Part shown: piece by piece, positions 6,279 through 6,719 of the stretch
Layout: each line of letters starts with the position of its first letter
Position numbering within the stretch: position 1 is the first letter of the stretch
IMG/VR virus record: IMGVR_UViG_2579778702_000011
Strand: one strand, 5' to 3'
DNA from: a virus
Taxonomy: Duplodnaviria > Heunggongvirae > Uroviricota > Caudoviricetes
DNA length: 14,554 nucleotides
The notes under the pieces: model-generated
Databases searched by the model: none
What the model saw: only the letters and a program-made list of their open reading frames with translations
What the model was told of the DNA's origin: nothing
Translations under genes and position numbers: made by a program

Positions 6279-6314
6279 TCGTACTTATTGGTGCCGAACC
6301 TTCCTTCAGTTATC

Positions 6315-6337
6315 CTTTTGATCCCTATAAACAAAAG
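6315..6337. promoter_or_regulatory. inverted repeat CTTTTG-N11-CAAAAG in a divergent intergenic region (candidate operator; spacer contains TATAAA)
   Basis: Read directly. Lies between the minus-strand gene 5529..6278 and the plus-strand gene 6356..6649. Confidence 0.35.
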
Positions 6338-6355
6338 AACCAAAGGAGGTTCGAC

Positions 6356-6649
6356 ATGAAAGTTCAGGCCGTTGGTTTATTCTGGTTTCGCGATGCGATT
6401 CAGTATCATGAGCTCAAAAATATTTTTACTGATGCTGATGTGCTCTCCGACAGTTACACCGAGTGGAAACACGACGCTGAAAAATTGATTAAGCGTGTCG
6501 AAAGAGGCGGGCAACGAGTTATTAAAGTTGAAGCGGATACAGCCGAGTTCATCACCTGGTGTACAAGCGAAGGCATTGGAATCAATGCCGAAGGTAGAAT
6601 GCAGTTCGCATCCTTTAAGGCTTACCAACAACTTCTCAGCGAACGCTAA
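6356..6649 (+). CDS. hypothetical protein (97 aa)
   Basis: Perfect SD AAAGGAGGT 6 nt upstream of ATG 6356. About 37% G at codon position 1, typical of real coding frames. A fully antisense minus-strand ORF (6377..6709) competes with it. Confidence 0.5.
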   Translation: MKVQAVGLFWFRDAIQYHELKNIFTDADVLSDSYTEWKHDAEKLIKRVERGGQRVIKVEADTAEFITWCTSEGIGINAEGRMQFASFKAYQQLLSER

Positions 6650-6719
6650 TGTGATCGGGGCAATCGAAATGGTTGTCCCATCGTATTTAATAGTTATTTT
6701 TTCGCTCATATCACCACCA

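Follow-up and report, generated by a model that had tools for sequence, protein, structure and literature searches.

Morons of lambdoid phages, as described by Hendrix and colleagues, are extra transcription units inserted between the genes of an operon, and long shadow open reading frames (ORFs) in frame -1 are common in bacterial genes. Both are relevant for an antisense ORF pair in the IMG/VR record IMGVR_UViG_2579778702_000011, a stretch of 14,554 nucleotides (nt) that is referred to as the window in the following and is a phiP27-like lambdoid prophage of Escherichia coli. The pair consists of a plus-strand ORF of 97 amino acids (aa) at 6356..6649 and a minus-strand ORF of 110 aa at 6377..6709, which lie opposite each other in the same triplets. 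The closest published parallel is the gene 10/olg1 antisense pair next to ner in the Pseudomonas phage Fc02, of which both products gave exclusion when expressed from plasmids (PMC9936078). As in the window, a small gene on the repressor strand is located there opposite the second ORF of a cro/ner-led early operon and beside the genetic switch; however, Fc02 belongs to the transposable, B3-like phages and its proteins are unrelated (PMC9936078), whereas the window pair is known from sequence alone and its minus frame shows no constraint at the protein level in the overlap. For the window, it is almost certain that the plus-strand ORF is a genuine accessory gene within an inserted cassette. The whole reading, according to which this gene lies in a backward cassette and the minus ORF represents pass-through translation from cro, has slightly better than even chances in our view.

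Both ORFs are found as given in the initial annotation. The plus ORF extends from ATG 6356 to TAA 6647-6649, with the Shine-Dalgarno (SD) sequence AAGGAGG at 6343-6349 ending 6 nt before the ATG, and the minus ORF from ATG 6709 to the stop codon at 6377-6379. Since the plus start and the minus stop are offset by 21 (6377-6356), the two ORFs share triplets. The plus ORF had been favoured as the real gene on the basis of the SD and of the share of G at the first codon position (37% for the plus frame versus 27% for the minus frame, as recounted here), and this preference agrees with a selection analysis of 48 homologous loci from genomes, viral contigs and metagenomes (one of them contributed by a scan of genome contigs), which gave 19 distinct coding sequences. 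Variable sites are distributed over plus codon positions 1/2/3 as 30/13/75, and the ratio of nonsynonymous to synonymous substitution rates (dN/dS) between divergent lineages is 0.03-0.12 in the plus frame, with dS being saturated (>1), versus 0.8-2.3 in the minus frame of the overlap. The dN/dS comparison of both frames, in which synonymous sites might have spoken for the minus frame, thus came out for the plus frame. The Prokaryotic Genome Annotation Pipeline (PGAP) annotates the gene as well (WP_000867910.1), and its product matches phrog_4753 over residues 1-97 of 97 (E=3e-49). A profile search with close homologues gave 1127 representative proteins, nearly all of ~100 aa (mostly 90-110), and homologues that are likewise 97 aa long are present in Serratia, Pectobacterium, Klebsiella, Salmonella, and Phytobacter. 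All residues that are invariant or nearly invariant throughout a 62-sequence alignment of the family are present in the window protein, on which they are numbered (M1, W10, D26, W37, G52, F65, W68, C69, and R81). Moreover, the AlphaFold2 (AF2) model of this alpha/beta protein is confident, with a predicted local distance difference test (pLDDT) value of 93.1. It is the codon-position pattern, the dN/dS values, the PGAP annotation, the phrog_4753 match, the family size and the AF2 model that together lead us to regard the plus ORF as a real gene.

The plus gene itself is therefore known, as it is annotated and belongs to a large uncharacterised family. Its protein matches no Pfam, NCBIfam or PADLOC family and no PDB sequence, and a structure search against BFVD returned uncharacterised proteins only. 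The sole functional lead is a fold match to the Aca2-like SO3848 (PDB 2ox6), a putative regulator of 166 aa with a helix-turn-helix (HTH) and a dimerisation domain (PMC8434428). The plus protein differs from SO3848 in that the identity is 11%, with no match at the sequence level and no Pfam HTH. Among the homologues, two variants (L025/L197 and L032/L181) have the gene interrupted by a premature stop at codon 36 or 37 with the antisense frame still open, which indicates that the 97-aa cargo gene is dispensable in some prophages.

The pair is located between two genes of the early operon, both on the minus strand. The first is a cro-like gene of 69 aa (6720..6929; PGAP; phrog_4749 with E=5e-49) and the next one encodes a Rha-family regulator (5529..6236; Pfam Phage_pRha), for which PGAP places the start at GTG 6236 and not at ATG 6278 as had been assumed. 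A promoter scan found the promoter-like site TTGATA-17-TAACAT upstream of cro (6994-6966, minus strand), and the gene order of the region places the LexA-type repressor at 7041..7697 on the plus strand, so that the plus gene is, as had been noted, on the repressor strand and antisense to the transcript from this promoter-like site. The region is 100% identical to its counterpart in E. coli O111:H21 strain 15A, and among 5426 complete E. coli genomes 88 contain it. When the relatives of this cro are grouped, the largest group (33 of 80 loci) has Rha directly after cro, which shows that ~6263 to 6719 is a cassette inserted inside the cro operon. What had been described as a divergent control region is thus mainly an inserted cassette. 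In other relatives the same position is occupied by a BssS-family gene or by L13 of phiP27, always on the repressor strand. The cassette begins with a shared leader, TTGGTGCCGAACCTTCC...AAGGAGGTTCGACATG (6289..6358, plus strand), which comprises a weak promoter candidate, the SD and the start codon and which is identical up to the ATG in locus L003 with a BssS cargo. The leader pattern is present in 81 viral contigs before 35 distinct cargo proteins of about eight unrelated families. The position of the plus gene, which the initial annotation called unusual, therefore is not: the same slot and leader hold at least 8 unrelated plus-strand cargo families in 77 viral contigs, and the cassette arrangement is recurrent in the phage group. 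We are confident that the 97-aa gene is part of an exchangeable cassette lying antisense in the cro operon, and the leader behaves like a conserved cassette junction that brings a ready-made ribosome-binding site (RBS) and ATG. On both sides of the ~65-nt leader, GCCGAACCTTCC...GGAGGTTCGACATG (6289-6358 in the window; L168-L246), the flanking genes vary.

Similar to morons, the cargo of the window is small, extra and missing from many close relatives, has its own RBS and a hairpin past its stop codon, and is located between genes that are adjacent elsewhere, where it swaps with unrelated BssS, L13, and 151-aa families. In contrast to morons, it is antisense inside the early cro operon instead of co-directional in a late operon, no consensus promoter was found for it, its hairpin lacks a clean U-tract, and its GC content (0.43-0.45) is only slightly under that of the neighbouring genes. 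A weak conserved promoter candidate, TTGGTG-N16-TATCCT, was read in the leader from alignments only; the plus gene may thus have its own promoter, and it may be expressed in the lysogen.

The two ORFs had been left as an unresolved pair. The plus ORF proved to be the gene, whereas the view of the minus ORF as a mere losing alternative does not hold, since its start, its openness and its coupling to the neighbours recur across lineages. Mechanically the minus ORF begins at the upstream in-frame ATG 6730. ATG 6709 is located 10 nt past the cro stop (TGA 6722-6720), and the RBS-like TGGTGGTGAT is read between the two (6710..6719, minus strand). The corresponding RBS and start are GGAGGTGTGAT-ATG in phiP27, GGGAGGCGTGAC-ATG in L035/L050, AAGGGGTTAACC-GTG in L033/L036, and AGGAGCCCAC-ATG in L155, and the RBS-like start follows the 3' hairpin of the cargo in all lineages inspected. 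Its distance from the cro stop is 1-26 nt with four different cro types and 147 nt in L155. The minus-ORF stop of the window, TAA 6377-6379, lies opposite the TTA codon for Leu8 in the plus gene; were it not for this single TAA, the frame would stay open to 6266, which leaves 26 nt to the Rha start. The minus frame of L033, L036, and the L035 group is open through cargo and leader, and its stop either overlaps the ATG of the following gene (ATGA) or directly adjoins it (TGAATG). Judged from its substitutions, the minus ORF does not appear to be a conserved protein across the overlap: testing for constraint in both frames found the plus frame constrained and the minus frame not. The minus product is represented by only 5 database clusters, all of the same locus type, and no independent homologue without the plus gene was found in the database search. 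Its AF2 model has a pLDDT of 54.9, which is weak evidence as the alignment had only 5 sequences. The 18 N-terminal codons outside the overlap show a ratio of nonsynonymous to synonymous differences per site (pN/pS) of 0.36-0.88, with summed differences by codon position of 176/136/230, and the peptide pattern (K/E)(I/V)x(I/V)..DG..I.(I)AP(I/V)T is kept despite many synonymous differences. This segment partly coincides with the plus-strand 3' hairpin. The C-terminus of the minus ORF varies freely, from 110 to ~180 aa, and is shortened in the window lineage.

The new and testable element of this locus is that stop codons in the antisense frame are depleted depending on the genomic context. Distant members of the 97-aa family were sampled, and in-slot or out-of-slot position was set by eye from the orientation of the neighbouring genes. 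Nine lineages have the 97-aa gene antisense inside a minus-strand operon and contain three antisense stops, six of these lineages being stop-free, whereas the six lineages with the gene in other contexts contain nine antisense stops and none is stop-free (Fisher p=0.017). A single antisense ORF in this register is no rarity: for the window gene, the chance of an open antisense frame is P ~0.03-0.17, depending on codon usage and on whether the flanks are included, and the antisense flanks are open in frame as well, with 19-29 codons each (P ~0.2-0.3).

The L13 family provides a second and more pronounced case in the same slot. In the in-slot lineages phiP27, L059, L062, and L066, which share 48-55% protein identity, no antisense stop is present over 143-223 codons, and the antisense frames of 221-262 codons begin directly behind cro and end 13-50 nt short of the next gene; 8-12 antisense stops are present in three L13 homologues outside the slot. 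Leu is encoded by TTA or CTA in 0 of 71 cases in-slot versus 21 of 41 out-of-slot (p=9e-12). In phiP27 (L001, NC_003356) the antisense frame is an unannotated ORF of 248 aa (3770-4516, minus strand) opposite L13 (3833-4504, plus strand) and in the same triplets, which starts 1 nt past the stop of the cro-like L12 and spans all of L13. Its non-overlapped C-terminal ~100 aa are conserved as a protein in L059, L062, and L066, and of the annotated L13 only the C-terminal ~144 aa are conserved in homologues. In the non-overlapped C-terminal part, L062 and L066 have a pS of 0.51 and a pN of 0.04 with differences of 5/1/22 by codon position, and phiP27 and L059 have differences of 38/29/53. This purifying selection indicates that a real minus-strand gene overlaps the L13-like gene. 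By analogy, the behaviour of the L13 slot may serve as a model for the frame kept open opposite the 97-aa gene.

The plus gene of this phiP27-like prophage thus belongs to a small cassette that lies backwards between cro and Rha and consists of the leader (with its SD and start codon), the cargo gene and the 3' hairpin on the plus strand. Early transcription that starts upstream of cro has to pass through the cassette in antisense to reach Rha and the replication genes, and most likely ribosomes leaving cro translate across the antisense cargo. With such pass-through translation, the early RNA would stay covered, with coupling to the next gene, and would be shielded from Rho-type polarity. The action of Rho on untranslated RNA in general has been reviewed (PMC12360218); literature searches found no direct account of antisense ORFs acting against polarity in prophages. 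We infer both the translation of the minus ORF and the reason for it, and consider the chances evenly balanced that it is translated as a pass-through ORF coupled to cro, of which the openness and not the sequence would be maintained.

Several findings weigh against this reading. The contrast of 6/9 with 0/6 stop-free lineages rests on small lineage counts and on contexts judged by eye. A complete bridge is not essential, since the antisense frame is interrupted at cargo codon 8 in the window lineage and at codons 22-23 in L155 and L248. Behind the same leader, antisense stops number 3-10 in the cargos of 151-157 aa, which are the most frequent ones, 4 in BssS and 5-6 in the cargos of 72-77 aa. 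The baseline of the 97-aa family outside the slot is low, with ~1.5 antisense stops per gene, so that a frame would be open by chance at P ~0.2 per lineage. Finally, a sigma-70 scan of 6100-7100 gave no plus-strand promoter at threshold. The idea that the slot always demands an open antisense frame, which was also considered, is ruled out by the 3-10 stops in other cargos behind the same leader.

Alternatively, the minus ORF could be an ordinary shadow ORF without function, whose start after cro and overlaps with the next gene would be coincidental or derive from the conserved cassette flanks. This explanation is a real possibility, even if it falls clearly short of an even chance. With frame -1 shadow ORFs the window pair shares the same-triplet register, in which stops arise only from TTA, CTA, and TCA codons, and since the protein has few Leu and Ser, long open antisense frames can occur by chance; calculated from the Leu and Ser counts, the probability of no stop per lineage is 0.06-0.54. 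Also common to both is that any apparent conservation of the antisense translation stems solely from that of the sense protein. Outside the slot, members of the family usually have one stop only, the dN/dS in the overlap is ~1 with a saturated plus-frame dS, and the minus product has neither independent homologues nor a good AF2 model. Furthermore, the shortened versions in the window, L155, and L248 lineages and the other slot cargos full of antisense stops are in line with a shadow ORF. Different from such ORFs, however, the depletion of stops depends on the context (p=0.017), and the start codon and the RBS-like sequence are kept across cargos that are only ~30-47% identical. In some lineages the ORF has stop-start overlaps with the next gene, which involve two different downstream genes, and neither the open flanks of 19-29 codons (P ~0.2-0.3) nor a pN/pS <1 in the unoverlapped N-terminus would be expected of it.

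True dual coding, in which both strands would encode functional proteins and the minus product (~110-180 aa) might act, for instance, in exclusion or during early lytic development, appears improbable. The kept N-terminal peptide pattern (pN/pS 0.36-0.88; differences 176/136/230) and the clear purifying selection on the C-terminal part of the L13-slot antisense ORF point in this direction, and with Olg1 and Gp10 of Fc02, each of which gave exclusion from plasmids, there is a precedent (PMC9936078). However, the sites that are synonymous in the plus frame are under no extra constraint (dS >1) and the minus dN/dS is ~1 in the overlap. Moreover, the length of the C-terminus is free, ranging from 110 to ~180 aa with shortening in the window lineage, the N-terminal pattern largely coincides with the plus-strand 3' hairpin, the AF2 model is of low confidence, from an alignment of only 5 sequences, and homologues without the plus gene were not found. 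The view that the minus ORF is a real gene at the cII position after cro and the plus ORF an artefact can be dismissed. The minus ORF does have an RBS-like start and sits where lambdoid phages carry an early gene after cro, but the codon-position pattern, with substitutions concentrated at plus position 3 (30/13/75), which is minus position 1, and the plus dN/dS of 0.03-0.12 rule it out as the true gene, and the plus family has 1127 representatives, occurs also in contexts without the antisense ORF and has a confident fold.

The pass-through reading could be extended to cargo genes that lie antisense in the cro-led early operons of lambdoid prophages. In this wider view, their choice among synonymous Leu and Ser codons would be under selection, which would keep the opposite strand readable as one uninterrupted ORF between the cro stop and the point where the next early gene begins. 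The pass-through ORF of the 97-aa type would then serve only anti-polarity or coupling, whereas in the L13 slot of phiP27 it would be the N-terminal part of a real protein, with overprinting in progress, and the leader hairpin would act as a second element at the RNA level. This proposal is less likely than not to hold. If the antisense frame is kept open by selection, the codon choice of an accessory gene would be limited by the need to translate the other strand of an essential phage operon. It would also offer a concrete and testable example of the way in which phages cope with genes inserted backwards into early operons, and of the origin of antisense overlapping genes. Annotation pipelines would then miss translated ORFs, in phiP27 probably a real gene, right beside the lysis-lysogeny switch of relatives of Shiga toxin (Stx) phages.

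Two hairpins flank the cargo gene. Between the plus gene and Rha, the initial annotation had noted the palindrome CTTTTG-N11-CAAAAG, which is indeed present with its half-sites at 6315-6320 and 6332-6337. Its role as a conserved operator-like site was rejected: shuffling the 119-nt intergenic region yields one perfect inverted repeat of 6 nt with a spacer of 3-20 nt in 31% of cases (P=0.31), and the half-sites are replaced in the divergent homologues L033, L035-L037, and L155. The palindrome (6315-6337) is only the apical part of a longer hairpin, an imperfect one of ~65 nt in the cargo leader (6291..6355, assigned to the minus strand), derived from the inverted repeats I1 and I2 and from folds. 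In its outer stem CGAACCTTCC pairs with GGAGGTTCG, so that the plus-strand 3' arm includes the SD. The inner palindrome is not conserved, whereas the outer stem is kept even in L155 with a different loop. The RNAalifold consensus is -24.2 kcal/mol for the minus strand versus -12.95 kcal/mol for the plus strand, and single-sequence folds give -28.7 versus -19.0 kcal/mol; the non-Watson-Crick pairs are G.U on the minus strand and C.A on the plus strand. The hairpin matches no Rfam family. As the helix is far more stable on the minus strand, an SD-sequestering element or RNA thermometer of the plus mRNA is disfavoured. The hairpin may act instead in the early (minus) transcript, as a processing or stabilising site or by sequestering RNA in the untranslated gap before Rha.

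The second hairpin, GGGGCAATC-GAAAT-GGTTGTCCC, was found by a terminator scan at 6657..6679 (plus strand). It is GC-rich, has 9 bp, begins 8 nt past the plus stop and is conserved with compensatory changes, being GGGGAG/CTCCCC in L155. In eight of nine variants it is more stable on the plus strand (-15 to -18.5 versus -6 to -13 kcal/mol). The T-run downstream of it is weak and is missing in divergent homologues. This hairpin fits a terminator-like or stabilising 3' end of a putative cargo mRNA.

A trace of recombination is visible beside the cassette. Upstream of Rha, 6250-6278 contains TTTATCCGTAAG, a sequence also present at the beginning of the coding sequence that comes next in L035/L037. 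The segment is what is left of the N-terminal part of another gene (MNPADFIRKH...), which follows the cassette in other prophages. With ATG 6278, TTTATCCGTAAG is homologous to the first codons of the gene MNPADFIRKHITAAL... downstream of the cassette in L035/L037, and the remnant extends the Rha ORF in-frame by 14 codons as a recombination scar. In prophages with a 151-157-aa cargo (L172 8587-9147 and L217 5111-5524, both minus strand, as well as L156 and L147), a minus-strand gene is convergent into the 3' half of the cargo. It has a plausible protein N-terminus, for example MKIKPYINAGNLTPGELRDW..., and is thus another form of antisense overlap in the same slot.

Three observations concern other parts of the window. 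Rfam matches at gathering level are present at 5175-5262 and 5287-5363 (both minus strand), to the C4 antisense RNA (RF01695, 82 bits) and IsrK (RF01394, 62 bits), respectively. Both are located inside the 5' part of the gene for a 284-aa 'Rha family phage regulatory protein' predicted by PGAP (4566..5420), which suggests a candidate C4-controlled antirepressor module of the P1/P7 type and possibly an over-extended coding sequence. Repeated motifs of the CAAAGTATCAA type are found at 6981-7017 and 7727-7773, on either side of the repressor gene, and are probably the right (oR) and left (oL) operator sets of the immunity type of the window. The segment 10369-11193 (plus strand) corresponds to a transposase of the IS903B family in the PGAP annotation of the identical E. 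coli record (L002 11157-12125), which indicates an insertion sequence (IS) in the left arm of the prophage.

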